Notes: generated by a model not told the origin, from the letters alone. Counted from the first letter of the stretch, positions 2 to 25,335 are shown. The stretch is DNA of 25,335 nucleotides from Myxococcota bacterium (GCA_041288095.1 JBGGMJ010000151.1:1-25335); one strand, 5' to 3'. Made by a program: numbers and translations.

Positions 2-436
2 GGCGGCGAGCACGCGCACTACATCACCATGGAAACCGAGCTCAACACGGCGATCGCCACCAAGATCGGTGAGCTCGCGCTCACGGGCAGCGTCTCACGC
101 GTCACCGGCTTCGATGACCCCAATGACTACGTCTACGAAGACACTCTGCGCATCATCGTCGGCTCGAGCTTGGTTTGGCGCACGCGCGCCGCGTTCTCGT
201 TCTACCCCTTCTCGAACTACCACCAGTTCGCGATCGGCCCGGCCGTGGACGTCCTCGGGGTGCCGACGCGCGACGAGATCTTGGTGCGCGCCGGCCTCGT
301 GACCCGCATCGTCTTGAACAAATCGATCGAGGTGCGCGGCAGCTTCGTGCCGACGCTCGTCAGCCGCGACCGTTTGGGCCTCATCACCAGCGACTTCACG
401 GAGCTGGGGGTACGCTGGCGCTGGGCGAGCGAGTAG
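2..436 (+). CDS. Hypothetical protein, 5'-truncated, possibly the C-terminal part of an outer-membrane beta-barrel
   Basis: Frame is open from position 2 (GGEHAHYIT-M...). Amphipathic strand-like segments and an aromatic-rich end (FTELGVRWRWASE). The start probably lies upstream of the window. Confidence 0.5.
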   Translation, partial: GGEHAHYITMETELNTAIATKIGELALTGSVSRVTGFDDPNDYVYEDTLRIIVGSSLVWRTRAAFSFYPFSNYHQFAIGPAVDVLGVPTRDEILVRAGLVTRIVLNKSIEVRGSFVPTLVSRDRLGLITSDFTELGVRWRWASE

Positions 437-1007
437 ACGCTAAAACGGAGGCCGCTTCCGACAGGCTCGCCGCCATCGCATCGGCGAGCTCGGCGGTGAT
501 GCGGGAGAGCGCCTCTGACGTGCTCGCGCCGCTGCCGTCGACGACGGCGCTGTAGCTCGCCTGTCGTCGCTCGATGGCCCGCGGCAGGTCGCTGGCCATC
601 AAGCTCCAGCTCGCCTCGCACTCGAGCTTGCCGGAAACCTCACGGAGCGTCAGGACGTCGACGACCCAGGCGAGGCTCCCGCGTGGTCGCGGCGCGTCGG
701 GAAACACCACCACGCCCTGCGGTAAGCGCGTCACCAGGTTCTGTGCCAGCGTCTGACGCATCAAGAAATCGAGCTCGTCCGTCCAACGCTCCAGCGAGCT
801 GATGGTCACCTCGTGGTCGTTGCTCCCGTGCAAGATGCGGTGTCCCGCGACGCTCGGCGGCAAATGCACCGCCTCGAGACGGACGGGCGCTCCGGTGTAG
901 CTGGTCCGGTTCGACGCCGCTTTCGGCGCCAGCGTGTAGAAGCGCGTGGGCTCGCTGTGGCCACACGCCGTGGCCAACAAGGCGATGAGCAAGAGAGCGC
1001 GTCTCAT
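396..1007 (-). CDS. pqiC: PqiC-family outer-membrane lipoprotein (ABC-type transport auxiliary lipoprotein)
   Basis: Lipobox LATA-C, followed by PTRFYTL, ERWTDEL and ASW motifs. ATGA overlap with the pqiB stop. Confidence 0.85.
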   Translation of the reverse strand: MRRALLLIALLATACGHSEPTRFYTLAPKAASNRTSYTGAPVRLEAVHLPPSVAGHRILHGSNDHEVTISSLERWTDELDFLMRQTLAQNLVTRLPQGVVVFPDAPRPRGSLAWVVDVLTLREVSGKLECEASWSLMASDLPRAIERRQASYSAVVDGSGASTSEALSRITAELADAMAASLSEAASVLASTRSPSASVPPAP

Positions 1008-2575: not shown

Positions 2576-3770
2576 CGCCGCGCTCCCGGGCTACGTCCCA
2601 CATGAGACGCGGGTCGAAGACGCGCGCCGCTATGACGGTCAAGAGCACGACGGCGGTGAAAGCGGGCGCCGCGGCCTCGGCCCGACTCGACATCGCGGCG
2701 TTGTATTGCGTGACCGGCACGAAGCACGCGAGGACCAACGGGTCGACCATTGACCAGCGACCGATGGCATCGACCACGTGGTAAAGCTTCGTTTTCAGGC
2801 GTAGGCGGCGTCGCGAGCGTCGCACCACCGACGAGATGCACCAACCGAGGCTTGCGAGCTTCAAGAACGGAATGGCGAAGCTCGCGACGAACACCAGGAG
2901 CGCGAGGCCGATCATGCGCACCTCGATGAGATCGATGACGCCGCCCATGACGGTGTACGAGACCTGGCTGAACTTGATGGGCAAGGTCGCCATCGGGAGG
3001 ATGTTCGCGGGGATGTAGAGGATGACGCTCGCGATGACCAAGGCGGTCGCGCGACTGACCGATTGCGGCCGCCGCAGGCGCAGCCGCGCGCTGCACCGCG
3101 GACAATCACTGCCCAGGAGCCGCGTCTGCTCGACCCGGCTACACACCATACAGGCCACGGCCGGCGGCTCCACGTGCTCGCTGTCGGGCATGATGGCGCG
3201 CCAGACGGTCGCCTTGTCGAGCGCCGCGGTGAGAATGAGACTGATGAAGCCGACGACGACGAAACAAACCCCACCCGCGCCGAGCGTCGTCGACACCGTG
3301 GCGTCGAGCCGCTCGTAGGCCACCCAGAGCGCGACGAGCAGCACGTCGGTCATGGCCCAGACCTCGAACCAGGTGGCATAGCGGAAGGCGCGTCCGAGCC
3401 ATGGACGCCGGCGGTTGTAGAGCACCGACCCGAGAACGGCGCTGAGCAAGGTGAACCGCGCAAAGGGCGCGACGATGACCACGAACCCGATGACGGCGGC
3501 GAGGGTTGGCCAGCCATCGTTCGTCATCGCGGACACGCACGATGCGATGACGCTGGTTCGCTTGGCCTGCAACACCGAGGTCGAAAGGAAGGGCAGGAAG
3601 TTGGCGGGGAAGAACAAGAGCAGGCCGGCGACGCTGCAACCGAACGCAAGCGTCATGCTACGTCCGGAGCTCCGCCAGAGCTCGGATCCGCACGCGACAC
3701 ACTCGACGACATTGGCGTCGTCGCCACGCTCCACGCTTTGAAGCGTGCCGCAGCTCCCACATTCCATCAT
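2565..3770 (-). CDS. pqiA: PqiA paraquat-inducible inner-membrane protein (two PqiA domains)
   Basis: Four CxxC pairs, two repeats of PANxLP, WAMTDV and IGRWSMVD, and FDPRLMWD at the end. Start placed at ATG 3770 after a G-rich RBS-like tract. Confidence 0.9.
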   Translation of the reverse strand: MMECGSCGTLQSVERGDDANVVECVACGSELWRSSGRSMTLAFGCSVAGLLLFFPANFLPFLSTSVLQAKRTSVIASCVSAMTNDGWPTLAAVIGFVVIVAPFARFTLLSAVLGSVLYNRRRPWLGRAFRYATWFEVWAMTDVLLVALWVAYERLDATVSTTLGAGGVCFVVVGFISLILTAALDKATVWRAIMPDSEHVEPPAVACMVCSRVEQTRLLGSDCPRCSARLRLRRPQSVSRATALVIASVILYIPANILPMATLPIKFSQVSYTVMGGVIDLIEVRMIGLALLVFVASFAIPFLKLASLGWCISSVVRRSRRRLRLKTKLYHVVDAIGRWSMVDPLVLACFVPVTQYNAAMSSRAEAAAPAFTAVVLLTVIAARVFDPRLMWDVARERGDDG

Positions 3771-3826
3771 ATTGGCGTCCGCCCCCCTGCTTTCGCCGTG
3801 AATTAAGGTAGGTAGTGCGAAGCCCA

Positions 3827-4561
3827 ATGCGCAACATCACCCCCTTCCTTCTGGTTTTTCTCGCCGCTTGCGCGCGCCCCCCCCTGAAAGTGGGCACCAC
3901 CGGTGATTACCGGCCATTCAGCCTCTGGCAGGGGTCTCAACCCGAAGGTGCCGACATCGCCATGGCCAAGGCCTACGCCAAGGCGCAGGGCCGAGAGGTC
4001 GTCTTCGTGCGCACCAAATGGACGACCCTCCTCGAGGACCTACACGCTGGTTGGTTCGATCTCGCCATGTCGGGCATCACCATCACCGAGCAGCGCGAGC
4101 GCGAAGCGGCGTTCAGCAGACCCTATTTTCAGGGCTACAAAGTGGCGGTCGTCCGCTGCGGCGACACTCAGCGCTTCGCCAGTTTGGCCGACGTCGATCA
4201 GAAAGGCGTGCGCGTCATCTACAACAACGGCGGCACCAACGAAGCCTTCGCGCGGCGCACCATCAAGACGGCTTCGCTCGAGAGCGAAGCCGACAATCTG
4301 CGTGTCTTCGCGAGGCTCGTCGATGGCGACGTCGACGTCTTCTTCACGGACAACATCGAAGCGACGGTGACGACCGGCGACAAGCACAAGGGCGTGCTCT
4401 GCACCGCTTTGGCGCACGAGAAGCTCGCGCCATTCGTCATCGCGGTCCTCGGCCGGCGTGGCAGCAAGGAGCTCGAACGCTTCGACGCCTGGCTCGCCGA
4501 CCCGGCCAATCAGAGCGCGATCGAAACCGTCTTGGTGGTCACGAACTCGAGCAAGCCGTAG
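3827..4561 (+). CDS. Family-3 solute-binding lipoprotein, cyclohexadienyl dehydratase (PheC)-like
   Basis: Lipobox LAA-C; LKVGTTGDYRPFS, DLAMSGITIT, NNGGTNE and TDNIEA motifs typical of the PheC clade. Confidence 0.75.
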   Translation: MRNITPFLLVFLAACARPPLKVGTTGDYRPFSLWQGSQPEGADIAMAKAYAKAQGREVVFVRTKWTTLLEDLHAGWFDLAMSGITITEQREREAAFSRPYFQGYKVAVVRCGDTQRFASLADVDQKGVRVIYNNGGTNEAFARRTIKTASLESEADNLRVFARLVDGDVDVFFTDNIEATVTTGDKHKGVLCTALAHEKLAPFVIAVLGRRGSKELERFDAWLADPANQSAIETVLVVTNSSKP

Positions 4562-12037: not shown

Positions 12038-14398
12038 TCAGGGCCGGGCCATGGTCCCCGTGCTCTGGCCGAGCTCCACGATGCTGTCGTAGAGAAGCTG
12101 CGTCACATACGAAAAGTTGTGCGCGTAGGCGCCGTGGTCTTTGCGCGATAGATTGTAGTTGTGCGCGGCTCGCAGCAGCGTCGCCGGCCAGGGGCCAAAG
12201 GCGTTGTTGCGCGTGGTCTCGGACGCGTCGCACGCAGGCCCGCTACCGTTGGTATCCCTGAAGAAGTAGGGGTTGCTACTGCTGAAGCAAGGCTTCAAAC
12301 CGACCGTGACCGAGTCGCGCATCGCGGTGAGCAGGCGCGCCGCGGCGCCGTCGAGCTCGGCCTGCAAGCTCTCGGTGGTGTTGGCGTCGCCGTCATAGTC
12401 GCCGGTGCGGTCTATCGGACGGATATCCTCGGGACCGTCGGCATCGGCGTGACAGCCGCCGCATGTGGTCTCCCACACGTCCGCTATAGCAAACGTATGG
12501 TTGCTCTGCACTGGCCGGTGACACGAAATGCACTCGGAGCCGCCCATGTGCGCGAGCGGACCGGCGTATGTCTGGCCGACTGCCTCGGCGCCGACATGCA
12601 GACTGCTACCCGCGCGGGTGCCCGCCGCGGGGTCGTAGTGAACGTTCAGGAAGCTCGTGACGTTGCCGGGCGAAGCCGCCGCGATTGCCGCTTCGATCGT
12701 GGCTTGGGATTGACGCCCGATGTGGCAGTTGGCGCAGAGGTTGTCGACGTTGTCGCTGCCGGGATTGGACGCGGGTGTCGGGTCGAAGGTGGTCGTCGTA
12801 CCGTTGGCGAGCCGCACGACCGCGGGCACGAAGGCTTTCCATTCCGGCGCGAAGGTCTCGTGACAGGTGTAGCACTCGAGGCCGTTGGCCTGCTCTTCCA
12901 CGACGTCACCGACACCGTACTGGGCAAAGAAGCGGAACCCCGAGGCGCCGCCGTGACAACGTGAGCACGAGGCGCTGACACCGTCGTTCGCATCCCAGTT
13001 GCGCGCCGCGGCGCTCGCGCCGTTGAAGTGGCCTTGATCGTTGCGCACGAGGTCCGTGGTATCGAGCGGCGGAGCCAGCGCGCCGCCGAGATCGACGGTG
13101 GAGTCGTGCAAAAGCTGGATGGTGTACTTGGCGTTGTGCGCGAAGTTGCCCGGGTCGGTCGTCGAGAGCTGATAGTTGTACGCCGCCTTGAGCGCGCGCG
13201 GAGTCCAAGCGCGATAGGCGTTGGCGAAGGTAGCCTCGCTCGCCTCGCAGGTGCCATTGGCGTTGCCGTCGGTGAACCAATACGGGTAGCTGCCACTGCC
13301 GTAGCAGAGAGCACCGCCATGCGCGGCCGCGTAGCTACGCAACGTGGTGAGCAGAGTTTCACGCAGTCCTTGCAGCTCGAAGGCGATGCCCTCGGCGGTG
13401 TTGCCGTCGCCGTCGTAGTCTTGATTGCGCGACGCGATCATGCGGATGTCACGAAGCTTGGCATTGTCGGTCGCGCCGGTGTGGCAGGTCGCACAGGCGT
13501 CGACCTTGACTTGCAACGAGTGCGCGTCGTGACAGCCGACGCAGGTGTCGAAGCCGGGCACGTGGCGGAAGCGCACGTCATAGACCTGGTCGTCGTATTG
13601 ATAGCCGCCGGCTGCGACCCCCGCGTAGAGCGTCGCTCCGGCGGGATAATAGTGCACGTTGGTGAAGCCGAGAGCCGGATCGACCGTGTCATCGCCGACC
13701 GTGCCGGCGGCGCTGATGACGCTGTCGACGTCGGCTCCGGAGGCGCGCCCTTGATGGCAGGTCATGCAGCGAGCCTCGGGACCGAGCCCTTCTACGGTGG
13801 CGCCCGAGGGGAACGTAGCATCCGTCAAAGCGGACACAGCGGCGTTATGGCAAGTCTTGCAGTCGATGACCGAGCCGGTCGGCGCGGCGCTGTCGACCTG
13901 ACCGGTCGGGGAGCCATCGCCACCTGCGTAGTCGATGAGGCCTTGCGAGCTGTGACAGCGCGCGCAGGTCGTGGGGATCTGGCCTTCGTCGTCCCAGTTG
14001 GTGAACGCGGGTGCGCCGGCGTCCGCGTGAGCGGAAGCCTGCCAGGCGTCGAAGAAGGGAATGGTGGCGTTGACGTCGGTGACGACGACGAGGACATGCC
14101 GCCCAGCCGCTCCAGTGTCGGCCCCGGTCGCGGTGATCACGGTCTCGCCGGACCCCAAGGCAGTGACCGTACCGTCGGCGGCGACGGTGGCGATGCTCTC
14201 GTCGGCGCTCGTCCACGCGTAGCTCGCGTCGCGGCCGTTCGCGGTCGTGGCCGTGAGCAGCGCGCTCTCGCCGACATCGAGTAAGCTCGGTCCGTCCGTC
14301 GTGATGACGGGCAGGCGCTCTTTTTCGAGCTCGGCGCAAGCGCCGATGAAAGCGAGCCCGCACACTGAGGCAAGCGTGAACATGTGGCGTGAGCTCAT
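12038..14398 (-). CDS. Decaheme c-type cytochrome lipoprotein with an N-terminal Big_2 Ig-like domain and two tandem pentaheme repeats
   Basis: Lipobox IGA-C21. Ig motif WTSADESIATVAADGTVTA. Ten CxxCH motifs: CARCH, CKTCH, CMTCH, CVGCH, CATCH, CSRCH, CYTCH, CANCH, CISCH, CGGCH. Confidence 0.9.
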   Translation of the reverse strand: MSSRHMFTLASVCGLAFIGACAELEKERLPVITTDGPSLLDVGESALLTATTANGRDASYAWTSADESIATVAADGTVTALGSGETVITATGADTGAAGRHVLVVVTDVNATIPFFDAWQASAHADAGAPAFTNWDDEGQIPTTCARCHSSQGLIDYAGGDGSPTGQVDSAAPTGSVIDCKTCHNAAVSALTDATFPSGATVEGLGPEARCMTCHQGRASGADVDSVISAAGTVGDDTVDPALGFTNVHYYPAGATLYAGVAAGGYQYDDQVYDVRFRHVPGFDTCVGCHDAHSLQVKVDACATCHTGATDNAKLRDIRMIASRNQDYDGDGNTAEGIAFELQGLRETLLTTLRSYAAAHGGALCYGSGSYPYWFTDGNANGTCEASEATFANAYRAWTPRALKAAYNYQLSTTDPGNFAHNAKYTIQLLHDSTVDLGGALAPPLDTTDLVRNDQGHFNGASAAARNWDANDGVSASCSRCHGGASGFRFFAQYGVGDVVEEQANGLECYTCHETFAPEWKAFVPAVVRLANGTTTTFDPTPASNPGSDNVDNLCANCHIGRQSQATIEAAIAAASPGNVTSFLNVHYDPAAGTRAGSSLHVGAEAVGQTYAGPLAHMGGSECISCHRPVQSNHTFAIADVWETTCGGCHADADGPEDIRPIDRTGDYDGDANTTESLQAELDGAAARLLTAMRDSVTVGLKPCFSSSNPYFFRDTNGSGPACDASETTRNNAFGPWPATLLRAAHNYNLSRKDHGAYAHNFSYVTQLLYDSIVELGQSTGTMARP

Positions 14399-14802
14399 GG
14401 CGATGCCCCTTCAGTAATCCATGCGAGGATGGTGCTGTAGTCGTCCGAACTAGTGGCGATCACGGCGCCACCGCCATGGCTCTCGCCGGTGGCTTCGCGC
14501 AGGAGCGTGCTCGTCGCCGGACTCGCGACGTTCACGAGAGCCAACACGGTGTCGTGGTCCGTCGCGGCGTCACCGCTGAGGTGATAGGCCGAGCCCGCGG
14601 CAAGGCCGCCGCTCCCGTGACAGGAACCGCAGCGCGCCATGAGAATGGGCAGCACGCTGGAGGCGAACGAGGAACCACCATCGTCGTCGCCGCTCGTGTC
14701 GCCGTCGCCGCCGCTCATATCGTCGGGTGAGGGATCACCGCGCTCGAAGCCGCCGCAGGCAACGAGTCCGAGCAGCATCAGCGCCAGGAGCCTAGAACTC
14801 AT
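14395..14802 (-). CDS. Monoheme cytochrome c lipoprotein (planctomycete cytochrome c/PSCyt1-like)
   Basis: Lipobox LVA-C, acidic Gly linker, SFASSVLPILMARCGSCH, ESHGGG and ILAWITEGA. Confidence 0.8.
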   Translation of the reverse strand: MSSRLLALMLLGLVACGGFERGDPSPDDMSGGDGDTSGDDDGGSSFASSVLPILMARCGSCHGSGGLAAGSAYHLSGDAATDHDTVLALVNVASPATSTLLREATGESHGGGAVIATSSDDYSTILAWITEGASP

Positions 14803-15988
14803 AGATCACCTGGAAGCGCAGCACGTCATCATCGACCTCGTCGCGCTTCTCGAGATTCCAGAAGTGATAGATGGCGCCCGTGAGATTTCGGTAGCGCGCA
14901 ACGACGGCGAGGTTGTGGCTCGTCGTGTCACGCAGGTCGTAGCGGGTGTCGTCACCAAGCACGCCGCGTCGGTTGTCGAGCAGCTTCAAACCGGTGCGCG
15001 CCTGCACGTAGAGCCAGTCGAACGCGTAATAGCGGATCTGCAGGTAGTCGGCGAAGTGGTAGTAGTCCTCGCCCGCCCCGCCATAGCCACGGCTAGCGCC
15101 ACCCGAGACGTCGGCACGAAGGACGCCGAGATCGATCGTGAGGCGATCCAAGATCGGCACGCCGTAGACCCGCCACAAGCTGATGTCGAAGGCTTGCATG
15201 AAGAGGCGGCGGCCGAAGCCGAGCGCGTTGTAGTAGGCGGAGTAGTAGACCGTGAACGGCGCGTAGGAGAGGGTAATGCGGTCGCCAAAGCCGAAACGCA
15301 CGTCGCGCGCCGGCGAGAAATCGGACTGCAGATTGATGACGGCGTCAGGCCGCGCCAACGCGTAACCCTGCACCGCGTAGATGTCGTTGGCGACGAGCAA
15401 TGGCCCGACGCGCGTCTGCACGTTCACGGTGCCGCCGTGTTGCGCCCAAATGACCGGCAAGATTTGCTGATCGAAGCCGGCGCGGCCGCCGTAGGCATGG
15501 TGATAGAGCGGGTCCGGGCCGAAGGGCACGAGGATGCGTCCCGCACGCGCGCGCACGCGCACGCGGCCCTCGAGCACGGTCTTGCGGTAGGTGATCTCGT
15601 ACCAAGTCTGGCCGATGATCTCGAGGTTGAAGCTGAACGGCTCGTCTTTGACGTCGCGCTCGAGGAACAACAGGCGGTGATAGTTCTGAAGCGCGTCGCG
15701 TCCCTTGAGGAAGTTGTCGCTATAGCCGACACGCTCGTAGTTGATGTCGAAGCGGCCGTGCAGGCGGAGATTGCCCGGAAGCGCGAGGCCCCCGAAAATG
15801 TCACCGCCGCCGTGCGGAGAACCGCCGCCGTGGGGCGCGGCCGCGGGTGGTGTCTCGGCGGCTGGTGTCTCGGCGGCTGGTGCCTCGGCGGCTGGTGTCT
15901 CGGCGGGCGCTGTCTCGACGGACGCGGGCTCGACGACCTCCTCGGGCCCCGCCAGCGCCAGGAGTAAGGCGACTAGTTGCGGTGACAT
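14792..15988 (-). CDS. Outer-membrane beta-barrel porin associated with cytochromes
   Basis: Short hydrophobic leader, low-complexity linker, Tyr/Phe-rich amphipathic strands, GRILVPFG motif and a C-terminal beta-signal LRFQVIYEF. Confidence 0.75.
   Translation of the reverse strand: MSPQLVALLLALAGPEEVVEPASVETAPAETPAAEAPAAETPAAETPPAAAPHGGGSPHGGGDIFGGLALPGNLRLHGRFDINYERVGYSDNFLKGRDALQNYHRLLFLERDVKDEPFSFNLEIIGQTWYEITYRKTVLEGRVRVRARAGRILVPFGPDPLYHHAYGGRAGFDQQILPVIWAQHGGTVNVQTRVGPLLVANDIYAVQGYALARPDAVINLQSDFSPARDVRFGFGDRITLSYAPFTVYYSAYYNALGFGRRLFMQAFDISLWRVYGVPILDRLTIDLGVLRADVSGGASRGYGGAGEDYYHFADYLQIRYYAFDWLYVQARTGLKLLDNRRGVLGDDTRYDLRDTTSHNLAVVARYRNLTGAIYHFWNLEKRDEVDDDVLRFQVIYEF
15848..15922. 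repeat. 15-bp tandem repeat (tggtgtctcggcggc, 4 near-perfect copies plus 1 degenerate) encoding (A/P)AE(T/A)P linker units in the porin
   Basis: Units start at 15848, 15863, 15878, 15893 and 15908. Confidence 0.85.
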
Positions 15989-16323
15989 GTTTCACAGTCA
16001 GCGTCGTCGAAGGACCAAGCCGATTTGCCGTCGTGGCAAGAGGCGCAGAACTTCCCCGCGTCCATGTCGTCATGGGTGAAGCCCATCCGCTGTTGCGGAA
16101 ACAGCGTCGGATGGCAGACGTAGCAAGCAAACTGGTCGTGCGACCAATGCGAATAGAGCGCAGCCTGTGGCGGGTCACCTTTGCCGTGCGCGCGGACGAT
16201 GGGAATGCGTACTGTCGGCGGCATGCCGAGGCTCGCGTTGGCGCTCTTCTCGCGCCAGATGGCGAGCATCGCGGCAGAGGCCAATACCGCGATCACGATG
16301 CCCTTGTAGTGCCGTCCGGTCAC
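15973..16323 (-). CDS. c7-type triheme cytochrome c
   Basis: GGAGGAG RBS before GTG 16323, N-terminal hydrophobic segment, then YSHWSH-CYVCH-DMDAGKFCASCHDGKSAW-CETCH. Confidence 0.85.
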   Translation of the reverse strand: MTGRHYKGIVIAVLASAAMLAIWREKSANASLGMPPTVRIPIVRAHGKGDPPQAALYSHWSHDQFACYVCHPTLFPQQRMGFTHDDMDAGKFCASCHDGKSAWSFDDADCETCHRN

Positions 16324-16324
16324 G

Positions 16325-16507
16325 TCACGCTCCTCCGCGCAGGGCGAGTCGCACGACGTGCATCGCGAAGTAGCCGACACCGAGGGCGATGAGAGGGATC
16401 CCCAAGAGAGCGAAGGCGACGAACGAGCCCGGCCCGAAGGAGGCCAGCTCGATAGTCTCGAGAGCGAGACCAACACCGATGCACGCAGTGAAGAATCGTG
16501 TGTTCAT
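16325..16507 (-). CDS. Small (60 aa) two-helix membrane protein
   Basis: ATGA overlap with the NapC stop, exactly fills the gap to the c7 gene, two hydrophobic segments. Confidence 0.65.
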   Translation of the reverse strand: MNTRFFTACIGVGLALETIELASFGPGSFVAFALLGIPLIALGVGYFAMHVVRLALRGGA

Positions 16508-17145
16508 TCGACGCGCGCCTCCGTCGGAGTCCAAATCTCGGCATCACCGAGTGTCTCGGTCGCATGCACCACGTCGTGACAGCCGGCGGCCACGCACGAC
16601 GTCGACCCAGCACGAAGCGCGGCAAAGCCTCCGTCATCGACCTTCGCGTGTGCCTTCACCTTGAGGAACGCTCGGGTTCCATCGTGACAGTGAAGGCAGT
16701 TGGCGTTGGCGTAAGGGGCGTAGAGCTTAGGGTGCTCCGGAATGGTTCCGAGATAGTGGACGAGGACGTGACGAAAGCCGTTGAGCTTCGCCTTGAAGCC
16801 ACCGAACATCGCGTAGTCGGTGTGGCAGGTGTAACAAGCGCGGTCCCGCGGTACGAGGCCACGCTGCACGTGCGTCGCCGCGAGATACTCCGAATCATCC
16901 ACTGTGAGGCTGCGCGCGAAAGGCTCCATCTCGTGACATTGGCTGGTGCAGAACTCGGTACGCTGCGATCGCTCGATGCCACTCGCGACGCCAACCACAG
17001 CGGCGCTCGCCGGCAACAAGATCGCGCACAAGAGCAGCAACAGTGGTCCGCCGGTCGCGGCCCGCAGCTGCTCGTAGCGTGCAAACACCAGCACCAAGCC
17101 GGTGAGCGCGAGTCCCACCACGATCCAAGCGAGCCAGTCGAGCAT
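16504..17145 (-). CDS. NapC/NirT/NrfH-family membrane tetraheme quinol dehydrogenase
   Basis: Two N-terminal TM helices; EFCTSQCHEM, CYTCH, AKLNGFRHV, NCLHCH and CVAAGCH. Confidence 0.85.
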   Translation of the reverse strand: MLDWLAWIVVGLALTGLVLVFARYEQLRAATGGPLLLLLCAILLPASAAVVGVASGIERSQRTEFCTSQCHEMEPFARSLTVDDSEYLAATHVQRGLVPRDRACYTCHTDYAMFGGFKAKLNGFRHVLVHYLGTIPEHPKLYAPYANANCLHCHDGTRAFLKVKAHAKVDDGGFAALRAGSTSCVAAGCHDVVHATETLGDAEIWTPTEARVE

Positions 17146-17151
17146 CTGCTG

Positions 17152-17505
17152 TCACTTCAACGAAGCGAGCCAGGCGACGAGCTTCTTCAGATCGTCATCC
17201 GAGCCCTGATACTTCTTCTTGTGCTTCTTGCCGTTGAGCTCGGCCTGCTTGGTGATGAACTTCTCGATGGTGGCCGCGTCGTGTTTGGCGCCGACCTTCG
17301 ATAAGTCGCCCGCGTCACCGTCGCTCTTGATGCCTTGCTCGGTGACCGAGTGACATTGAGGGCAGCCAGCGGCGACGAAGACCGCTTTCCCAGGTGGATC
17401 GTCTGCGTAGGCCGCGCGCGACGCGAACATCACACCGAGCAGGCAGGCACCCATTAGGATGGAGCGCGCGAACGACCCAGTCCGCGAAAAAGCACACATC
17501 ATCAT
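17152..17505 (-). CDS. Periplasmic monoheme cytochrome c, Lys-rich
   Basis: GGAGGG RBS before ATG-ATG-ATG (start could be 17505, 17502 or 17499), signal peptide ending AYA, GKAVF..CPQCH, GDLSKVG and LVAWLASLK. Confidence 0.85.
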   Translation of the reverse strand: MMMCAFSRTGSFARSILMGACLLGVMFASRAAYADDPPGKAVFVAAGCPQCHSVTEQGIKSDGDAGDLSKVGAKHDAATIEKFITKQAELNGKKHKKKYQGSDDDLKKLVAWLASLK

Positions 17506-17609: not shown

Positions 17610-18038
17610 TCAAGTCGACATCAGAAGCCGCACGAGCAAGCGCACCATGTCGGATTCGGTGACTATCCCGACAAGCACGCCGTCATCGACGACCGGCAGA
17701 CAGCCAATGCCGGCCTCGAGCATCAGTGTCGCCGCGTCGCGCGCCAGCATGTCGCGAGTCGCCGTACGCACGCTGGTCTGCATCAAAGTACGCGCCGGAA
17801 GGCGATGCTCGAGCGCGACGGTCTCGCGCGCCGATAGGTGCAGCGTCGAGCTAGGACGCGCAGCCAGAATGTCACGATGGCTCACCAGACCCACGAGCTT
17901 GCCATGCTCGACGACCGGCAGGTGGCGGATGTGCTTGAGCGCCACGATGGCGGAGGCAGTCGCGAGGTCATCGTCCGGCCCGAGACTGACGACGGGGCTG
18001 CTCATGAGATCGGCGACGCGGGTCTCGGCGATGTCCAT
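17610..18038 (-). CDS. CBS-domain pair protein
   Basis: VADLMSSPVV, IRHLPVV..LVGLVSHRD and IGCLPVV..LVGIVTESD. Start at ATG 18038. Confidence 0.88.
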   Translation of the reverse strand: MDIAETRVADLMSSPVVSLGPDDDLATASAIVALKHIRHLPVVEHGKLVGLVSHRDILAARPSSTLHLSARETVALEHRLPARTLMQTSVRTATRDMLARDAATLMLEAGIGCLPVVDDGVLVGIVTESDMVRLLVRLLMST

Positions 18039-18083
18039 GAGGAAACCCTTGCCAGACGCGCGGGCTTGCGCAAAGGCGTTGGC

Positions 18084-18800: not shown

Positions 18801-19211
18801 ATGAGCAAGCCCGTCCCACAGATCCGCAAGTACATGACCACCACCCCCATCACGATGGGCGCCGAGCAAACGCTCGCCACCGCGTCCGCGAAGATGACCG
18901 AGCATCGTGTCCGACATCTACCCGTGCTCAAGGGCGGCAAGCTCGTGGGCATCATCTCCGACCGCGACGTCCGCCTGGCGGAGAGCTTCCAAGGCGTCGA
19001 TCCGAAGGTCGAGCCGCTCGACTTCGTCATGACCAACGACGTGTACACGGTAGGCCCGGAGACCCCGCTCGATGAGGTCGTCGGTCACATGGCTGAGACG
19101 AAGGTCGGCTCCGCGATCGTCGTCGATGCCGGCCACGTGGTTGGCGTGTTCACGACGACGGATGCATGCCGCGCGCTCGCCGAGCTATTGGAGACGCGCT
19201 TGCGCAAGTGA
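18801..19211 (+). CDS. CBS-domain pair protein
   Basis: YMTTTPIT, VRHLPVL..LVGIISDRD and VGSAIVV..VVGVFTTTD. Confidence 0.9.
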   Translation: MSKPVPQIRKYMTTTPITMGAEQTLATASAKMTEHRVRHLPVLKGGKLVGIISDRDVRLAESFQGVDPKVEPLDFVMTNDVYTVGPETPLDEVVGHMAETKVGSAIVVDAGHVVGVFTTTDACRALAELLETRLRK

Positions 19212-19271
19212 GCAGCCGTTACCGGCTACCGTATTGGCCGCGGGGTGCTCATCATGCGATGCGGTCTCGTC

Positions 19272-20462
19272 ATGCGCATCCTCGTCGTCAATACGGGCAG
19301 CTCGTCGGTGCAGCTGCAGCTCGTGGTCACGGGCGCAGCCCACGCAAGCGCGGATGACGCCAAGGTCGAGCTCGCGGCGAAGGTCGAGTCGTTGAAAGGC
19401 GACGCGCACCTCGTCGTCGACGGCAAGCGCCGACCGGCGAAGGCAAGGCAACACGCGGAGGGCGCGCGGGAGATTCTCGACACGCTGGGAGAATCCCTGC
19501 GCGAGGTTCACGCCGTCGTTCATCGGCTCGTCCATGGCGGTGCCCGCTATCGCGAGCCCGTGCGCATCGACGAAGAGGTCATGGCTGCGATCCGCGACCT
19601 CGAGACGCTCGCTCCCCTGCATAACAGGGTAGCGCGCGAGGTCATCGAGGCGCTGCGCGAGCGTTTGCCCGACGTGCCTCACGTCGCGGTGTTCGACACC
19701 TCATTTCATGCCCGGCTACCCGAGCAGGCGTTCACGTACGCCATCGCACCGGAGCTCGCGCGCGCCTACGGCATTCGCCGCTACGGGTTTCACGGCACCG
19801 CCTACCGGTACATGGCGAACCGCTACGCCGATATCCGCGAAAACGGATCATCCCGACCCGCGAAGGTGGTGGCGGTGCACCTCGGAGGCGGTTGCTCGGT
19901 CGCGGCCATCGATGGCGATCACTCGGTCGAGACGTCGATGGGGATGACGCCACTCGAAGGCCTGGTTATGGGAACCCGCGCCGGCGACATCGATCCCGGC
20001 ATCATCGAGCTACTGGCAACGCGCGAGAACAAGTCGGCGGCCGAGGTCGTCGATCTGTTGAACCGCGCCGGTGGCCTCAAGGCGCTGTCGGGACTGACCG
20101 AAGATACGCGCGTGCTCGTCGAAGAGATGGCGACCAACCCCCGCGCCGCGCTTGCTCTCGAAGTGTTTTGCCATCGCATCGTCAAGTACGTCGGCGCCTA
20201 CCTCGCGGTGCTCGACGGCGCCGAAGCCCTCTTGCTGGGCGGCGTCATCAACGAGAACACGCCGTGGGTTCGCGAGCGTGTCTGCCGACAGTTCGCGTGG
20301 TGCGGGCTCGAGCTCGACGCCGGGCGCAACGCCGACACCATCGACCGCGAAGGCCGCATCAGCACCGACACCTCACGCCTCCACGCCTGGGTGATTCCGG
20401 CAAGAGAAGATCTCCAACTTGCCTTCGAGGCCGCGTGCCTCATCGAAGGCACGAGGACCTGA
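19272..20462 (+). CDS. ackA: Acetate kinase
   Basis: [48 protein letters not shown] and GTRAGDIDP. Confidence 0.92.
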
Positions 20463-20464
20463 CG

Positions 20465-22831
20465 ATGGAACGGATCCTGAGCAGCGAAGAGCTACGCCGT
20501 ATCGATGCCTATTGGCGGGCTTGCAACTACCTGTCCGCGGGCATGATCTACCTGCGAGACAATCCGCTATTACGGAAGCCACTCGCGGCGGAGCACATCA
20601 AGCGCCGCTTGTTGGGGCACTGGGGGTCCGACCCAGGCCAGTCGTTCATTTGGGTGCACCTGAACCGAGTGATCAAGAAGCATGATCTCGATATGATCTT
20701 CATCTCGGGTCCGGGTCATGGCGCGCCCGCCATGCTCGCGAACGCGTATCTCGAGGGCACCTACTCCGAGATCTATCCCGACTGCGGTGAGGACGAAGCG
20801 GGCCTCACACGCTTCTTCAAGCAGTTCTCGTTCCCGGGTGGCATCGGCAGCCATTGCACCCCCGAGACGCCGGGCTCGATCCATGAGGGCGGCGAGCTCG
20901 GGTACAGCCTGTCACACGCCTATGGTGCCGCTTTCGACAATCCCGAGCTCATCGTCGCGGCCGTCGTCGGCGACGGGGAAGCTGAAACCGGGCCGCTCGC
21001 CACCTCGTGGCATTCCAACAAGTTCTTGAACCCGATCCGCGATGGCGCGGTGCTGCCCATCTTGCACTTGAACGGCTACAAGATCGCGAACCCGACCATC
21101 TTGGCGCGCATCCCACACGAGGAGCTCGAGCAACTCTTTCGCGGCTACGGTTACACGCCGCACTTCGTCGAGGGTCACGAGCCGGAAGCCATGCATCAAA
21201 CCATGGCGGCGGTGCTCGAGCGCTGCGTCGCGGAGATTCGTGGCGCTCAGCGGCAAGCGCGCGGCTCCGGGCAAGCGACGCGACCCCGCTGGCCCATGAT
21301 CGTCCTGCGCTCGCCCAAAGGCTGGACGGGCCCGAAGGAAGTCGCCGGCCACCGCGTCGAGGACTACTGGCGCTCGCATCAAGTGCCGGTCGCCGATGCC
21401 GCGACCAACGCGAAAGGCTTGGCTGTCGTCGAACAATGGCTGCGCAGCTACCGGCCGGAAGAGCTCTTCGACGCCTCGGGCCGGCTCGCCGTGGAGCTTC
21501 GCGACCTAGCCCCCAAGGGAACGAGGCGGATGAGCGCCAATCCGCATGCGAACGGAGGGCTACTCCGCAAGCAGCTCGACCTTCCAGATTTTCGTGAGTG
21601 CGCTGTAGCGGTCAAGAAGCCGGGCCGAGAGCTCGCGTCACCGACGCAGGTGCTCGCTGGTTACTTGGGCGAAGTCATGCGCCGCAATATGACGAGCTTT
21701 CGCCTCTTCGGCCCCGACGAAACGGCATCGAACAAGCTCGACGGGGTTTACGCCGCCTCGAAGAAGACTTGGCTCGGGGACTATCTGCCCGAGGACGCGG
21801 ACGGTGGCGAGCTCGCGCCCGACGGCCGCGTGATGGAAATGCTCTCGGAGCATACGCTCGAAGGCTGGTTCGAGGGTTACGTCCTCACCGGCCGCCACGG
21901 GCTCTTCTCCACCTACGAAGCCTTCGTCCACGTCATCGACTCGATGTTCAACCAGCACGCCAAGTGGCTGGACAAAGCGCGGCAAGGCCTCGACTGGCGA
22001 GCGTCGATCTCGTCGGTGAATCTGCTGATCACCTCGCTCGTCTGGCGGCAGGACCACAACGGCTTCACCCATCAAGATCCAGGCTTCCTCGATCTCGTCA
22101 CCAACAAGAGTCCCGATGTCGTCCGCATCTATCTGCCGCCCGACGCGAACTGCTTGCTCTCGGTAGCGGACCACTGCTTGCGCTCGCGCGACTACGTCAA
22201 CGTCATCGTTTCCGACAAGCAGCCGCACTTGACGTTTCTCGAGATGGACGCCGCGGTGAAACACTGCACCAAGGGGATCGGCATCTGGGATTGGGCGAGC
22301 AACGACCAGGGCAATGAGCCGGACGTCGTCCTCGCGTGCGCCGGCGACATCGCCACGATGGAGACGCTGGCGGCCGCGGCGTTACTCCGGGAGAAGCTCC
22401 CGGAGCTCAAGGTGCGGTTGGTGAACGTCGTCGATCTCTTCCGCTTGATGCCCGAGAGCGAGCATCCGCATGGGTTGTCGGATCGCGACTTCGACTCGCT
22501 CTTCACGACCGACAAGCCGGTGATCTTCTGTTTCCATGGCTATCCCGCGCTGATTCACAAGCTCGCGTACAGGCGCCGCAACCACCAGAACATCCACGTT
22601 CGCGGCTACAAGGAGAAAGGCAACATCAACACGCCTTTCGAGCTCGCAATCATCAACCAGGTGGATCGCTTCAACCTCTGCATCGACGTGGTGAACCGCG
22701 TGCCGCACCTGGTGGAGCGCGGCGCGCATTTGAAGGAATGGCTCAAGAATCAGATCATCGACAGCCTCGAGCACGCGCATGCCGAAGGCATCGATCGTGA
22801 GGCGATCCGCGATTGGGGCTGGCCCGGGTAA
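20465..22831 (+). CDS. xfp: Xylulose-5-phosphate/fructose-6-phosphate phosphoketolase
   Basis: [39 protein letters not shown] (TPP binding), LSEH and [11 protein letters not shown]. Start at ATG 20465. Confidence 0.95.
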
Positions 22832-22842
22832 GCGCCGACTCG

Positions 22843-22886
22843 CGAAATTTCTGCGGAGGAAGATTGCCTCGCCCGCAATTGCTGCG
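22843..22886 (+). promoter_or_regulatory. Paired upstream activator sites for a sigma54 enhancer-binding protein
   Basis: cgaaa-ttt-ctgcg (22843-22855) and cgcaa-ttg-ctgcg (22874-22886), starting 89 and 58 bp before the -24 GG. Confidence 0.6.
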
Positions 22887-22930
22887 CGTCAGCGAGCGCA
22901 TCGGTGCGCGATTTCACGGCTCCGGCGACT

Positions 22931-22946
22931 GGGAACGGCATTTGCA
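22931..22946 (+). promoter_or_regulatory. sigma54 (RpoN) -24/-12 promoter of the osmC-acyl-CoA ligase unit
   Basis: gGGaacggcatttGCa: GG-N10-GC with TTGCA, 35 bp before ATG 22982, which has an AGGAGG RBS. Confidence 0.68.
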
Positions 22947-22981
22947 ACTGGAGGGTCACGAAGCACACGCAGGAGGACCCC

Positions 22982-23392
22982 ATGGCGCACACATACGAAA
23001 TCCCCATCGAGCTCGTCAGTCAGCAACGCATCGACGCGACCGTCCACGGCCATTTGATCCGCACGGACCAACCGATCGGCCGCGGCGGCCACGATGCCGC
23101 ACCGTCGCCGTTCGACCTGTTTCTCGCGAGCATCGGCACATGCGCGGGACTCAGCATCCAAACCTTTTGCGTCAAGCGCGACATTCCCTTCCAGGGGATC
23201 GGCATCATCGAGGAGATCGCTCTGGACGACCATGGTGTTCTGACCGGCGTGGAAGTGCGCATCACGCTCCCGGAGGGCTTCCCGCCCCGCTACGTAACGG
23301 CGCTGCACAAGGTCGTCGCGCAATGCGCCGTCGCGCGCTCGGTGCTCGCGCGCCCCAACTTCACGGTCACCACGCACAAGAGTGACGCATGA
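22982..23392 (+). CDS. OsmC/Ohr-family protein
   Basis: IRTDQP..GG..APSPFDLFLASIGTCAG and a second Cys in QCAV. Confidence 0.88.
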   Translation: MAHTYEIPIELVSQQRIDATVHGHLIRTDQPIGRGGHDAAPSPFDLFLASIGTCAGLSIQTFCVKRDIPFQGIGIIEEIALDDHGVLTGVEVRITLPEGFPPRYVTALHKVVAQCAVARSVLARPNFTVTTHKSDA

Positions 23393-25335
23393 CGCGTACG
23401 GGTCTCGATGCCGTGCTCGCTCCACGTTCGGTCGCTGTCGTCGGTGTGTCGCGCGAACGCGGCGGCATCGGTGCCGAGATCTTCCACAACCTCATCGCTT
23501 CCGGGTTTCGCGGGCCCGTCTATCCAGTCAATCCGCATGCCGATTGGGTGCAATCCGTCAAAGCGTACGCGAGCGTCGCGGAAGTCCCCGGACCGGTCGA
23601 CCTGGTCGTCATCACCACGCCAGCGTCCGCGGTGCGCGGCGTGGTCGAAGCTTGCGCGGCGAAAGGCGTCAACGGGATCGTCGTCATCAGCGCGGGTTTC
23701 GCCGAAGGCGGAGGTGATGCGCGCGCGCAACAGCGAGAGCTCGCCGAGTATTGCCGCCGCGCCGGCATGCGCATGGTCGGGCCCAACTGTCTCGGAGTCT
23801 TGAGCACCGCGCCGGACGTTCGCCTCAATGCGACCTTCGGTCCGATCAATCCGCCACGGGGCAGCGTCGCTTTCGCTACTCAGTCCGGTGGTCCAGGGCT
23901 TGCGGCGTTCGACTACGCCGAGAGCCTCGGGGTCGGCATCAGCGAGCTCGTCAGCATGGGGAACAAGGCCGACGTCTCCGGCAACGATCTCATCGAGCGC
24001 TGGCGCGACCACCCGGCGACGCGCGTCATCCTCTTGTACCTCGAGAGCTTCGGCAACCCGCGACGCTTCCTCGAGCTGGCGCGCGAGGTGAGCGCCAAGA
24101 AGCCGATCATCGCCGTCAAGGCAGGGCGCACGCCAACCGGAGCGCGCGCGGCAAGCTCACACACCGCGGCCCTCACGAGCTCAGACACCGCCGCCGCGGC
24201 TCTCTTCGCCCAAACCGGAGTCGTGCGGGTCGAGAGCATGCGCGAGCTGCTCGAGACCGCGAGTGTTCTAGCTCTGCAACCTGTCCCGGCCGGTCGACGC
24301 ACCGCGATCATCACCAACGCCGGCGGCCTCGGCATCATGGCTGCCGACGCGTGCGAAGCGCGCAATCTCCTGCTCCCCAAGCCCGACCCATCGACCCGCG
24401 ACGCTCTGCGTGGTTGCTTGCCGGCCGCTGCTTCCGTCGAGAACCCGATCGACATGGTCGCCAGCGCCTCGGCGCAAACTTACGAGCAGACCCTGAGCAC
24501 GGTGCTCGCCAGCGATGCGTTCGATTCCGCTATCGTGTTGCTAGTGCCGACGGCCGTGACCAACACCGAAGAGATCGCGCGTTCCATCGTTCGCGCTAGC
24601 GCCGGGACGAGCAAGCCGGTCGTGACGGCAATCGTGGGAGTCCATGGCGTCGCCGAGGGCCGCAGGCACTTGTGTGCGTCGGGCTTCCCCGCCTTCGCGT
24701 TCCCCGAGGATGCCGTGAACGCCCTCGGTCATGCGACGGATTACGGCGTCTGGCGTGCAGCGCATGCCGAGCGCGAGGCGGCGCCGGCGCCACGCGACGC
24801 TAGCTCGGCCCGAAGGATTCTCGACCAGGCCAAAGCGAGGCTCCGCGCGAGCGCCCCGGATGCCGCGAGTGGTTGGCTCGATCCACAAGAGACGCACGCT
24901 CTTCTCGCGGCGTGCGGGATCGCGATGCCGCGCAGCGCCTTCGTCACTACCATCGAAACAGCCATCGCCGGCGCCGAGCGCATTGGCTACCCGGTGGTCG
25001 CGAAGGTCGTCGCGCCGCATGTCCTCCACAAGACGGAGGTCGGCGGCGTGCGCATCGGGCTCCGGGACGCGGCGGCGGTGCGGGCAGCCTGTGGCGCCAT
25101 GGTCGACCGCTTGAACGGAGTGGTCGACGGCTTCGTCATCCAGGAAATGCGCGAAGGGGGTACGGAGCTACTCGCCGGCGTCTCGCGTGACCCGACCTTC
25201 GGCCCGCTAATCGGCTTCGGAGCCGGCGGCACGCAAGCGGAGCTGCTGGCTGACGTGGCCTTTCGTATCGCGCCTCTGACGCCGGGAGACGCGCGCGCGC
25301 TGATCGAGGACATCCGCTCGCAGGCTCTCTTGAAA
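23389..25335 (+). CDS. ADP-forming acetate/acyl-CoA ligase (fused alpha-beta ACD family), 3'-truncated
   Basis: Absent from the ORF track because it runs off the window. ATGA overlap with osmC. Translation gives PRSVAVVG, YPVNP, ISAGFAE, GPNCLG, GNKADV, AASSHTAAL, TNAGG, NPID, HKTEVGGV and DPTFGP. Confidence 0.9.
   Translation, partial: MTRTGLDAVLAPRSVAVVGVSRERGGIGAEIFHNLIASGFRGPVYPVNPHADWVQSVKAYASVAEVPGPVDLVVITTPASAVRGVVEACAAKGVNGIVVISAGFAEGGGDARAQQRELAEYCRRAGMRMVGPNCLGVLSTAPDVRLNATFGPINPPRGSVAFATQSGGPGLAAFDYAESLGVGISELVSMGNKADVSGNDLIERWRDHPATRVILLYLESFGNPRRFLELAREVSAKKPIIAVKAGRTPTGARAASSHTAALTSSDTAAAALFAQTGVVRVESMRELLETASVLALQPVPAGRRTAIITNAGGLGIMAADACEARNLLLPKPDPSTRDALRGCLPAAASVENPIDMVASASAQTYEQTLSTVLASDAFDSAIVLLVPTAVTNTEEIARSIVRASAGTSKPVVTAIVGVHGVAEGRRHLCASGFPAFAFPEDAVNALGHATDYGVWRAAHAEREAAPAPRDASSARRILDQAKARLRASAPDAASGWLDPQETHALLAACGIAMPRSAFVTTIETAIAGAERIGYPVVAKVVAPHVLHKTEVGGVRIGLRDAAAVRAACGAMVDRLNGVVDGFVIQEMREGGTELLAGVSRDPTFGPLIGFGAGGTQAELLADVAFRIAPLTPGDARALIEDIRSQALLK

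Follow-up and report, generated by a model that had tools for sequence, protein, structure and literature searches.

A seven-gene operon of a Myxococcota bacterium as a candidate outer-membrane electron conduit built on a 16-strand porin

How might electrons from the quinol pool reach outer-membrane cytochromes in a bacterium in whose genome no MtrB-type sheath is detected? This question is raised by a 25,335-nt stretch of DNA from a Myxococcota bacterium (GCA_041288095.1, JBGGMJ010000151.1; the whole stretch is referred to as the window), which carries seven minus-strand genes, here designated g1 to g7, at positions 12038-17505. To our knowledge, only few outer-membrane electron conduits are understood, namely the Mtr/Mto/Pio systems, the Omb and Ext clusters of Geobacter, and Cyc2. 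An earlier note, made from the sequence of the window alone, had read the seven genes as a candidate for a new, self-contained wire from quinol to the cell surface that is built from different parts. In the present analysis the barrel of this wire was supported by a confident model, its genes were found to be conserved and related loci turned out to contain cytochromes of the OmcA/MtrC family; the barrel, however, is a classical porin according to its model, and a position of the monoheme lipoprotein beyond the porin is disfavored. We see the arguments as evenly balanced for and against the view that the operon provides a complete path from the menaquinol pool to outer-membrane cytochromes, built on a 16-strand porin that is associated with cytochromes and belongs to an undescribed family, and hence encodes an outer-membrane electron gate.

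The genes of the operon, together with two features within g5, are the following:

17152..17505, minus strand: g1, secreted monoheme cytochrome c of 117 aa (PF00034, Cytochrom_C, 32.4 bits, cut-off 21.3)
16504..17145, minus strand: g2, predicted NrfH/NapC-type membrane tetraheme quinol dehydrogenase of 213 aa (PF03264, NapC/NirT, 31.6 bits, cut-off 24.1)
16325..16507, minus strand: g3, hydrophobic membrane protein of 60 aa, no family (hydrophobic stretch at residues 19-56)
15973..16323, minus strand: g4, predicted periplasmic c7-type triheme cytochrome of 116 aa (TIGR04257, 50.1 bits, cut-off 40; PF14522, 46 bits, cut-off 24.8)
14792..15988, minus strand: g5, predicted porin-like outer-membrane beta-barrel of 398 aa with 16 strands and the C-terminal residues YEF (AlphaFold2, Foldseek, VIA-align)
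15843..15921, no strand assigned: 15-nt tandem repeat with 5.3 copies and 89% matches, encoding the (P)AAET linker of g5 (Tandem Repeats Finder score 116; predicted local distance difference test score, pLDDT, below 50)
15446..15529, minus strand: L3-type loop of g5, codons 154-181, VPFGPDPLYHHAYGGRAGFDQQILPVIW, a signature of the family by its conservation in the family alignment
14395..14802, minus strand: g6, monoheme lipoprotein of 135 aa (lipobox Cys16, acidic/Gly linker, heme domain of ~90 aa)
12038..14398, minus strand: g7, decaheme lipoprotein of 786 aa (lipobox, Big_2 domain at 31 bits, two duplicated pentaheme modules)

Reading of the open reading frames (ORFs) in the window reproduced the coordinates and the close spacing of seven co-directional genes that the earlier note had described, and each junction could be verified in the sequence. 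The g1 stop is separated from the g2 ATG by a 6-nt gap and the g3 stop from the GTG start of g4 by a single nucleotide, g2/g3 as well as g6/g7 share an ATGA, and overlaps of 16 nt and 11 nt connect g4 with g5 and g5 with g6, respectively. The seven genes are tightly coupled translationally. Strings resembling Shine-Dalgarno sequences (GGAGG, AGGTGA or GAAGGGG) are present 5' of g1, g4, g6 and g7, with GGAGGAG located just before the GTG of g4. In total, the operon encodes 19 heme sites, i.e. 17 CXXCH motifs, one CX3CH and one CX4CH. They are distributed as one in g1, four in g2 (two CXXCH plus the CX3CH and the CX4CH), three in g4, one in g6 and ten in g7, while g3 and g5 possess none. The series 1+4+0+3+0+1+10 given earlier is thus correct when both unusual motifs of g2 are counted, but not for canonical CXXCH alone, of which g2 contains two. 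As only five ORFs with at least three CXXCH exist in the 5.85-Mb, 90%-complete genome and two of these belong to the operon, its density of heme motifs is beyond chance.

Each of the seven genes is present in single copy in the genome. When scanned with Pfam and NCBIfam, g3, g5 and g6 stayed below all curated cut-offs, and no match at all was obtained for g3 and g5. The same scans detected no MtrA/DmsE, no MtrB and no catalytic reductase in the operon, MtrB having been searched for genome-wide as well, and thereby agree with what had been noted before. A scan for promoters and terminators gave no signal exceeding the shuffled expectation, and Rfam had no match in the window. The operon is listed in metagenome DNA runs from soil and cave only, with no RNA run listed.

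What type of barrel does g5 encode? An AlphaFold2 model based on a 56-sequence alignment reached a mean pLDDT of 84.5 and a predicted template modeling score of 0.79, with residues 66-398 mostly above 90 and arranged in 16 strands. Residues 15-64, which comprise a Pro/Ala/Glu linker at the N-terminus, are disordered in the model. The repeat encoding this linker sits between signal peptide and barrel, and its copy number may differ among strains. A Foldseek search of the PDB returned OmpC, OprP, OprO, PorB and similar porins with a probability of 1.00 and E-values from 2e-9 to 1e-7. VIA-align, which is independent of Foldseek, ranked OprP at the top (Z 23.1, root-mean-square deviation (rmsd) 3.5 over 287 residues), followed by chitoporin, DcaP, PorB and Omp32 (Z 21-22), whereas MtrB (6r2q_B) reached only Z 10.9 at an rmsd of 9.2. 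The ESM Atlas model of g5 agrees with the porin fold. At the sequence level, g5 had no Pfam match at E 0.1, including PF11854 (MtrB_PioB), and no NCBIfam match, its profile gave no meaningful match to PDB sequences, and PF11854 had no match in the whole 90%-complete genome. The earlier view that the product of 14792-15988 forms an outer-membrane barrel is therefore borne out by a confident model. As modeled, g5 is a classical 16-strand porin resembling OprP and PorB rather than a shortened MtrB sheath.

The most conserved part of the barrel family is the loop encoded by codons 154-181, in which 15 of 28 positions are conserved to at least 90% and the mean frequency of the top residue is 0.78, as compared to 0.62 for the strands. 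His163, Tyr166, Gly167, Gly168 and Asp173 are invariant. This loop joins strands 5 and 6, which is the position of loop L3 in porins. Since the strand order places it at L3 and the structural matches are porins, a location of this loop in the pore lumen is inferred. A wire of hemes running through g5 in the manner of MtrAB is unlikely, because the protein has a 16-strand porin fold and this conserved L3-type loop.

To see in which company the barrel occurs, we searched for its relatives. A profile of the barrel family matched 198 proteins at E ≤0.001 among 1.84 billion representatives. Scanning one genome per species provided 71 barrel loci (L numbers), nearly all of them from Myxococcota and including the complete genomes of Corallococcus coralloides, C. 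exercitus and Myxococcus dinghuensis; L038 and L048 are loci from complete genomes of cultured carriers. Synteny was counted by tblastn for 68 loci, as the remote loci L068-L070 (barrel identity below 34%) were dropped, and the denominators refer to loci with enough flanking sequence:

c7 gene at most 2.2 kb upstream of the barrel gene: 58/60 (missing in L016 and in L071, a 58-residue fragment match)
g6 directly downstream of the barrel gene: 62/64 (missing in L065 and L071)
NrfH-like gene: 40/57
g7-type decaheme: 43/57
OmcA/MtrC-like decaheme: 13/57
decaheme of either type: 47/57
all four components together: 38/51 (full flanks on both sides)
none of NrfH-like, g7-type and MtrC-like genes: 10/51 (L016, L042, L049, L052, L055, L057, L059, L061, L065, L071)

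As had been anticipated for a functional unit, the genes co-occur in other genomes across Myxococcota. The last row comes with caveats: L042 has an MtrC-like gene on the other strand that is detected by Pfam, L016 lacks c7, L065 lacks g6, and L071 is the fragment match. A plain core of c7, barrel and g6 is found in L049, L052, L055, L057, L059 and L061, and the shorter loci L050, L053, L054 and L058 have only these three genes in common. In a phylum sample of 401 Myxococcota genomes, the barrel is present in at least 31, a floor obtained in a stricter first look, and it is single-copy in all but one and patchy by family. All 26 genomes with a close homologue of the barrel (E ≤1e-130) encode a g7 orthologue on the same contig within ~3 kb (25/25 when the unpublished genome G195 is left out).

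The strongest indication that electrons cross the outer membrane is provided by the OmcA/MtrC-family decahemes at these loci. They replace g7 in L007, L008 and L047, accompany it in L020, L028, L045 and L063, and are encoded divergently in L042. These neighbors match PF22113 with E-values from 2e-30 to 2e-58, and five of five tested scored 340-454 bits with TIGR03507, for which the cut-off is 209. No MtrB match was obtained in any of five genomes carrying such a decaheme beside the barrel, the completeness of these genomes being unestablished. We know of no characterized system in which proteins of the OmcA/MtrC family are not extracellular. That the barrel sits together with members of this family in five genomes without an MtrB match is our main argument for a passage of electrons through the outer membrane. 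The OmcA/MtrC decahemes of L042 (4214-7120, minus strand) and L020 (3441-5912) possess N-terminal collagen triple-helix repeats, an unusual stalk for an outer-membrane cytochrome.

How does g7 relate to this family? Like OmcA/MtrC proteins, it is a lipoprotein whose ten hemes are divided between two pentaheme domains. These halves share 34% identity with each other (E 6e-38), each module contains a DYDGDGN motif and a helical tail, and the lipobox cysteine, Cys21, is conserved to at least 90%. The Big_2 domain resembles surface proteins such as intimin and phage fibers. An alignment of 39 orthologues revealed ten invariant histidines outside the ten CXXCH motifs, and all ten hemes are probably ligated by two histidines (bis-His). 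An open catalytic heme is unlikely, as ten invariant non-motif histidines suffice for ten hemes. A catalytic multiheme enzyme of the NrfA, HAO or MccA type was considered and rejected, given that matches to these were weak and sub-threshold and that ten invariant histidines of the distal type are present. With regard to OmcA/MtrC, g7 itself scored below the cut-offs (28.1 bits with PF22113, cut-off 30; no match to TIGR03507), its orthologues in L048 and L044 reached 38-39 bits with PF22113, and no match of g7 to PF22112, the OmcA-like N-terminal domain, was found. Hhalign aligned the second pentaheme module of g7 with the C-terminal pentaheme domain of the OmcA/MtrC-type neighbors at a probability of 97.4% (E 1.2e-11, 146 columns), which suggests remote homology of the modules at best, as the heme motifs drive part of the alignment. 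Hence, the earlier statement that the terminal cytochrome is unlike MtrC does not hold entirely. With TIGR03508 (MtrA/DmsE; cut-off 192.2 bits) the best scores were 30.3 bits for g7 and 17.1 bits for g2. Searched against PDB sequences, the g7 profile found Big_2 matches, whereas cytochromes appeared at chance level only (c7 at E 0.011; 6r2q_A, a 333-aa chain of an Mtr-complex entry that is labeled 'Cystathionine beta-synthase', at E 0.087). In databases, the orthologues are named 'hypothetical protein', 'Ig-like domain-containing protein' or 'cytochrome c3 family protein'.

Some g7-like deca- and dodecahemes are encoded at loci lacking the barrel, for instance in L082 (genome G124), L084 (G084) and L086 (G129), and these loci may represent other conduit types. 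In two of five such loci examined, L082 and L084, g7 stands beside a four-heme cytochrome and near 11-heme cytochromes, and L084 additionally encodes a 16-heme cytochrome with CX4CH motifs of the Geobacter type. In L086, the g7-like protein is accompanied by a YNCE-like beta-propeller and a 723-aa unknown protein with an aromatic C-terminal residue; a 462-aa protein of this kind is present in L082.

The second putative cytochrome at the outer membrane, g6, links the operon to a different architecture. Invariant or almost invariant positions in an alignment of 54 sequences are C16, R21, G22, C58, C61, H62 and H109, and a conserved C-x-x-F-x-R-G motif (of the C-A-D-F-x-R-G type) follows directly on the lipid-modified cysteine. 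Library searches yielded weak matches to the N-terminus of RoxC (E 5e-8) and to a Leptospira lipoprotein family, and at E 0.01 not more than four of the 54 members matched, weakly, any cytochrome c model, all of them generic. The g6 profile gave no meaningful match to PDB sequences. A resemblance by eye to the planctomycete domain PSCyt1 was not substantiated, since none of the 54 members matched the Pfam model at E 0.01. Heme motifs can also be part of the barrel frame itself: in 32 of the 71 loci the barrel frame comprises ~700-870 codons and carries two CXXCH in an N-terminal extension, and eight further loci have one CXXCH. In L011, the sole fused barrel compared, the extension is made up of the g6 domain twice in tandem (E 2e-16 and 4e-15). 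Thus, g5 and g6 of the window would be the split form of this protein, i.e. a bare barrel and a lipid-anchored heme domain. We also considered g1 as the counterpart of the fused diheme domain, which was ruled out by a lack of similarity.

These fusions bear on the side of the membrane at which g6 acts. The N-terminus of a porin is its periplasmic end. As the fused copies sit at this end, the g6-type heme is probably periplasmic, at least in the fused forms. The gene order had earlier been taken to run from inside to outside with the monoheme lipoprotein beyond the porin, a placement that is disfavored by the fused domains of L011 and the 32/71 loci with two CXXCH. In a FastTree phylogeny of the barrel domains, unfused forms look basal and the window and L001 nest beside the fused clade; with support values unexamined and several labels being contig-end artefacts, the tree carries no conclusion on loss versus gain of the fusion.

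The remaining four genes would supply the outer membrane with electrons. g2 belongs to the NapC/NirT family, as it exceeds the PF03264 cut-off and possesses a membrane anchor and four heme sites; its N-terminal hydrophobic segments span residues 1-25 and 26-58. A CXXCHxM-like motif at heme 1 is typical of NrfH, and g2 carries such a motif, C(x)xxCHEM being kept in 11 of 11 aligned sequences. It falls short of the NrfH equivalog TIGR03153 (30.2 bits, cut-off 134.2), and a Pfam scan found no NrfA-type gene in the operon. The CX3CH of heme 1 and the CX4CH of heme 4 align exactly with CXXCH motifs of ten relatives. Both variants are shared by the nearest relative, L001, while most relatives have CXXCH, and a CX4CH at heme 4 is common to L007, L008 and L047, all with unfused barrels.

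The g3 gene has an equivalent in 35 of 37 loci, where a hydrophobic ORF of 46-84 aa follows the NrfH-like gene, mostly overlapping its stop, and precedes c7. This conservation argues that g3 is a genuine gene, and its product probably belongs to the quinol dehydrogenase module as a subunit. Two cytochromes are predicted to be soluble in the periplasm. The three heme sites of g4 as well as H59, H62 and H84 are invariant among 53 homologues, making six invariant histidines in all, which suggests bis-His hemes. g1 has a signal peptide ending in AYA|DD and the heme motif CPQCH of a class I-type cytochrome. Its heme is probably bis-His as well, because the histidine of a KHK motif is invariant in the alignment of nine homologues and a conserved methionine is absent. 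Homologues of g1 were found in eight loci only, of which seven have a heme-free barrel frame and one (L037) a frame with a single CXXCH. A complex prediction for the barrel (residues 62-398) and c7 (residues 30-116) gave an ipSAE of 0.02 in both of two runs, which were made without controls and thus weigh neither for nor against a contact.

Assembled into a path, menaquinol would be oxidized by the NrfH-type tetraheme protein g2 together with the small membrane protein g3, and g1 and g4 would transfer electrons over the periplasm to an outer-membrane unit composed of the porin g5 and the lipid-anchored g6. g7, with its putative all-bis-His hemes and no open catalytic heme, could serve as the terminal wire anchored at the outer membrane and pass electrons to an extracellular or pore-accessible oxidant, e.g. 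Fe(III), Mn(IV) or humic quinones. Myxobacteria use menaquinone, which is of low potential. Outward flow is favored since the entry point is of the quinol dehydrogenase type, all hemes look bis-His and menaquinone has this low potential. As g5 cannot sheathe c7 or g6 in the way MtrB sheathes MtrA, the passage needs another solution: hemes may dock at the mouths of the narrow pore, or a redox-active small solute or metal ion in the pore may mediate transfer, as has been suggested for Cyc2. More tentatively, and with the odds somewhat against it, we propose that myxobacteria employ a third structural solution for moving electrons through the outer membrane, in which a narrow 16-strand porin, equipped with monoheme domains that are lipid-anchored or fused and supplied by c7, serves surface decahemes of the OmcA/MtrC family without an MtrAB sheath, the relay being the His/Asp-rich L3 loop, a bound metal or a small shuttle.

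Several findings weigh against such a path. The main difficulty is geometry, as a 16-strand porin with an L3 loop would, going by the model, house neither c7 nor g6. With its conserved L3 loop, the barrel has the fold of a solute channel, so that solutes rather than electrons may pass, and the probable periplasmic location of the g6-type heme has to be added here. The decaheme and the quinol dehydrogenase appear to be accessory to the core, because ten loci in the tblastn count have no NrfH-like, g7-type or OmcA/MtrC-type genes, and g7-like decahemes are found without the barrel in nine of the 35 genomes that have them. The unestablished completeness of the five genomes without an MtrB match belongs to the same side. 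Finally, the host encodes two heme-copper oxidases and one cytochrome bd, which marks it as an aerobe, and with only five ORFs of at least three CXXCH it is unlike known metal respirers. Given these oxidases, any such electron pathway would be auxiliary, e.g. under oxygen limitation.

Could the chain then be confined to the periplasm? All cytochromes including both lipoproteins would face the periplasm, and the porin would admit a soluble oxidant that is reduced there by the decaheme, with chelated Fe(III), Mn(III), a metalloid oxyanion or an organic shuttle as candidates. We consider this arrangement unlikely, though still to be reckoned with. It would suit a classical solute porin whose nearest structural match is the phosphate-selective OprP (Z 23.1) and in which an L3-type constriction loop is most conserved, as well as the fusion of g6-type domains at the periplasmic N-terminal end of the barrel; outer-membrane lipoproteins, moreover, usually face the periplasm. 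However, heme fusion and translational coupling to cytochromes would remain unexplained if the barrel were a mere channel. Decahemes of the OmcA/MtrC family, extracellular where characterized, replace or join g7, and g7 itself has a Big_2 domain of the surface-protein kind and no open-coordination heme. An inward flow of electrons, in which a Cyc2-like outer-membrane oxidase of Fe(II), Mn(II) or reduced minerals and humics passes electrons on to the terminal oxidases through c7 and g1 and to quinones through the NrfH-type protein, appears improbable to us. The fused relatives do share the architecture of Cyc2 and Cyt572, an N-terminal heme domain followed by a 16-strand OprP/O-like barrel, the host has aerobic oxidases of which one could be fed by the soluble monoheme g1, and Mto clusters of iron oxidizers also contain a CymA-type gene according to PMC10654088. 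Yet most loci, i.e. those with the fused form, lack g1 and have kept the quinol dehydrogenase type alone, and the hemes look bis-His and hence are probably of low potential. Reduction of menaquinone by Fe(II) is unfavorable at neutral pH, and the cultured carriers Corallococcus and Myxococcus are organotrophic predators.

Still less credence is given to a non-respiratory redox device of low flux, devoted to reductive iron acquisition, redox sensing or protection, which we regard as very improbable. An aerobic host with few multiheme cytochromes would be compatible with such a role, and so would the minimal modules, which in L057 neighbor genes for a response-regulator HD-domain protein and a PAS histidine kinase and in L050, L054 and L058 ORFs homologous to these, and the recurrence of CBS-pair proteins near the cluster. 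For a sensor, however, a chain of 19 hemes and a dedicated quinol dehydrogenase would be costly, and no TonB receptor, siderophore or regulator gene is present in the operon of the window.

Returning to the outward path favored here, we asked how far its parts correspond to known conduits. Cyc2 and Cyt572 have been modeled as 16-strand barrels on OprP, OprO and PorB with an N-terminal, periplasmic heme domain (bioRxiv 10.1101/2021.03.22.436458; PMC10654088; PMC13741234). The top structural matches of g5 are the templates of these published models, and the strand number is the same; together with the 32/71 loci that have heme motifs in the N-terminal extension of the barrel, this amounts to a likeness in architecture and fold. 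Unlike Cyc2 and Cyt572, the barrel of the window has no heme motif and its heme domain is a separate lipoprotein; a quinol dehydrogenase, c7 and a decaheme are further parts of the cluster. The fused L011 carries two heme domains of ~90 aa, whereas Cyc2 has a single short one with one heme.

With MtrCAB of Shewanella and with MtoAB/PioAB, the operon shares the sequence of a NapC/NirT-family quinol dehydrogenase, a periplasmic carrier, and a barrel with a lipoprotein decaheme. To MtrCAB it is further connected by relatives holding true OmcA/MtrC-family proteins, to which the pentaheme module of g7 appears remotely homologous. It differs in having neither an MtrA/DmsE decaheme (TIGR03508, 30.3 of 192.2 bits) nor MtrB, in the 16 strands of g5 as opposed to 26 in MtrB, and in the Big_2 domain and helical tails of g7, which has no PF22112 match. 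The conduits of Geobacter follow a pattern of beta-barrel, periplasmic cytochrome and lipoprotein multiheme cytochrome in one cluster, according to PMC5585712. Compared by description, OmbB-OmaB-OmcB and ExtABCD show the same pattern as the operon, whose periplasmic partner, however, is a triheme c7 instead of an octa- or dodecaheme, and which has an additional monoheme lipoprotein and its own quinol dehydrogenase. PCC3 and PCC4 of iron oxidizers are putative conduits that were predicted from clusters of a porin, multiheme cytochromes and an inner-membrane redox protein (He et al. 2017, PMC5566968). For the PCC3 cytochromes, medians of 34 and 21 hemes are given there, and the inner-membrane protein of PCC3 and PCC4 is a putative five-helix b-type protein. 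Measured against that description, the operon of the window has small cytochromes, and electrons would enter through an NrfH-type c cytochrome.

A full-text literature search, covering neither subscription-only papers nor supplements, found no description of the cluster, consistent with the earlier expectation that it does not match an already characterized system, and within the same scope no description of electron transfer by these genera. What is new here is the barrel family without a Pfam or NCBIfam model and the combination of parts; the type of conduit, porin-cytochrome or cytochrome-porin, is already known. The cluster links the architecture of Cyc2, a heme domain plus a 16-strand porin, with surface cytochromes of the OmcA/MtrC type, and it is a compact and conserved candidate conduit in cultivable myxobacteria, where it is open to knock-out. 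If functional, it would place soil myxobacteria among the organisms capable of electron exchange with minerals or humics, offer a candidate partner to metagenomic OmcA/MtrC homologues that lack MtrAB, and provide iron-gene annotation tools with a new marker.

Relatives of the barrel outside this group shed light on its history. A remote group of heme-free barrels of ~345 aa has the same ILVPFG..HH.YGG loop motif. On the metagenome contigs L079 (4830-8868), L080 (4182-8452) and L081 (7-4107), the barrel gene is followed by genes for a ~190-aa membrane protein, a ~185-aa protein, a lipoprotein cytochrome and the flavin transferase ApbE. The ~185-aa protein is FMN_bind/RnfG-like in L079, the only one tested, and in L079 and L080 the lipoprotein cytochrome starts with C-G-A-P-x-P-F-x-R-G. 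This cluster looks like a flavin-plus-heme redox module of the outer membrane, for which no description was found. The organisms are of low G+C content, and the ~190-aa membrane protein has no family. L078 encodes this membrane protein and a g6-like monoheme lipoprotein, while the contig of L077 ends just past the barrel gene. Barrel genes of relatives from Rhodothermaceae (L068, L069) and Eisenbacteria (L070) are oriented divergently beside genes for 8-heme or 4-heme cytochromes, and the Calescibacterium locus L065 has c7 and barrel only. Since remote relatives in other phyla keep lipoprotein cytochromes of the g6 type, the pairing of barrel and g6-type cytochrome appears to be old.

A few observations concern the genes surrounding the cluster. 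In L057 (3910-7409), from a peat-fen Myxococcales metagenome-assembled genome, genes for a PAS hybrid histidine kinase and a response-regulator HD-domain protein precede c7, barrel and g6, and ORFs homologous to this pair are carried by L050, L054 and L058. In L058 (44-2057), NrfA and NrfH genes are located upstream on the opposite strand. In the window, two genes next to the head of the operon encode CBS-pair proteins (17610-18050, minus strand; 18801-19211, plus strand). With both proteins as queries, tblastn gave matches near the cluster in L001, L008, L012, L024, L034 and L064, and the two proteins may act as partners in regulation or sensing. Divergently from the operon, positions 19245-25335 encode acetate kinase, a phosphoketolase (XFP) and a protein resembling ADP-forming acetyl-CoA synthetase. 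The use of these fermentation genes as evidence for an 'electron sink' was dropped, as they are not conserved next to the cluster in any locus fetched. At the other end of the window, positions 396-3827 carry a set of PqiA, MlaD-domain and ABC-auxiliary lipoprotein genes of the lipid-transport type, which is unrelated to the operon.

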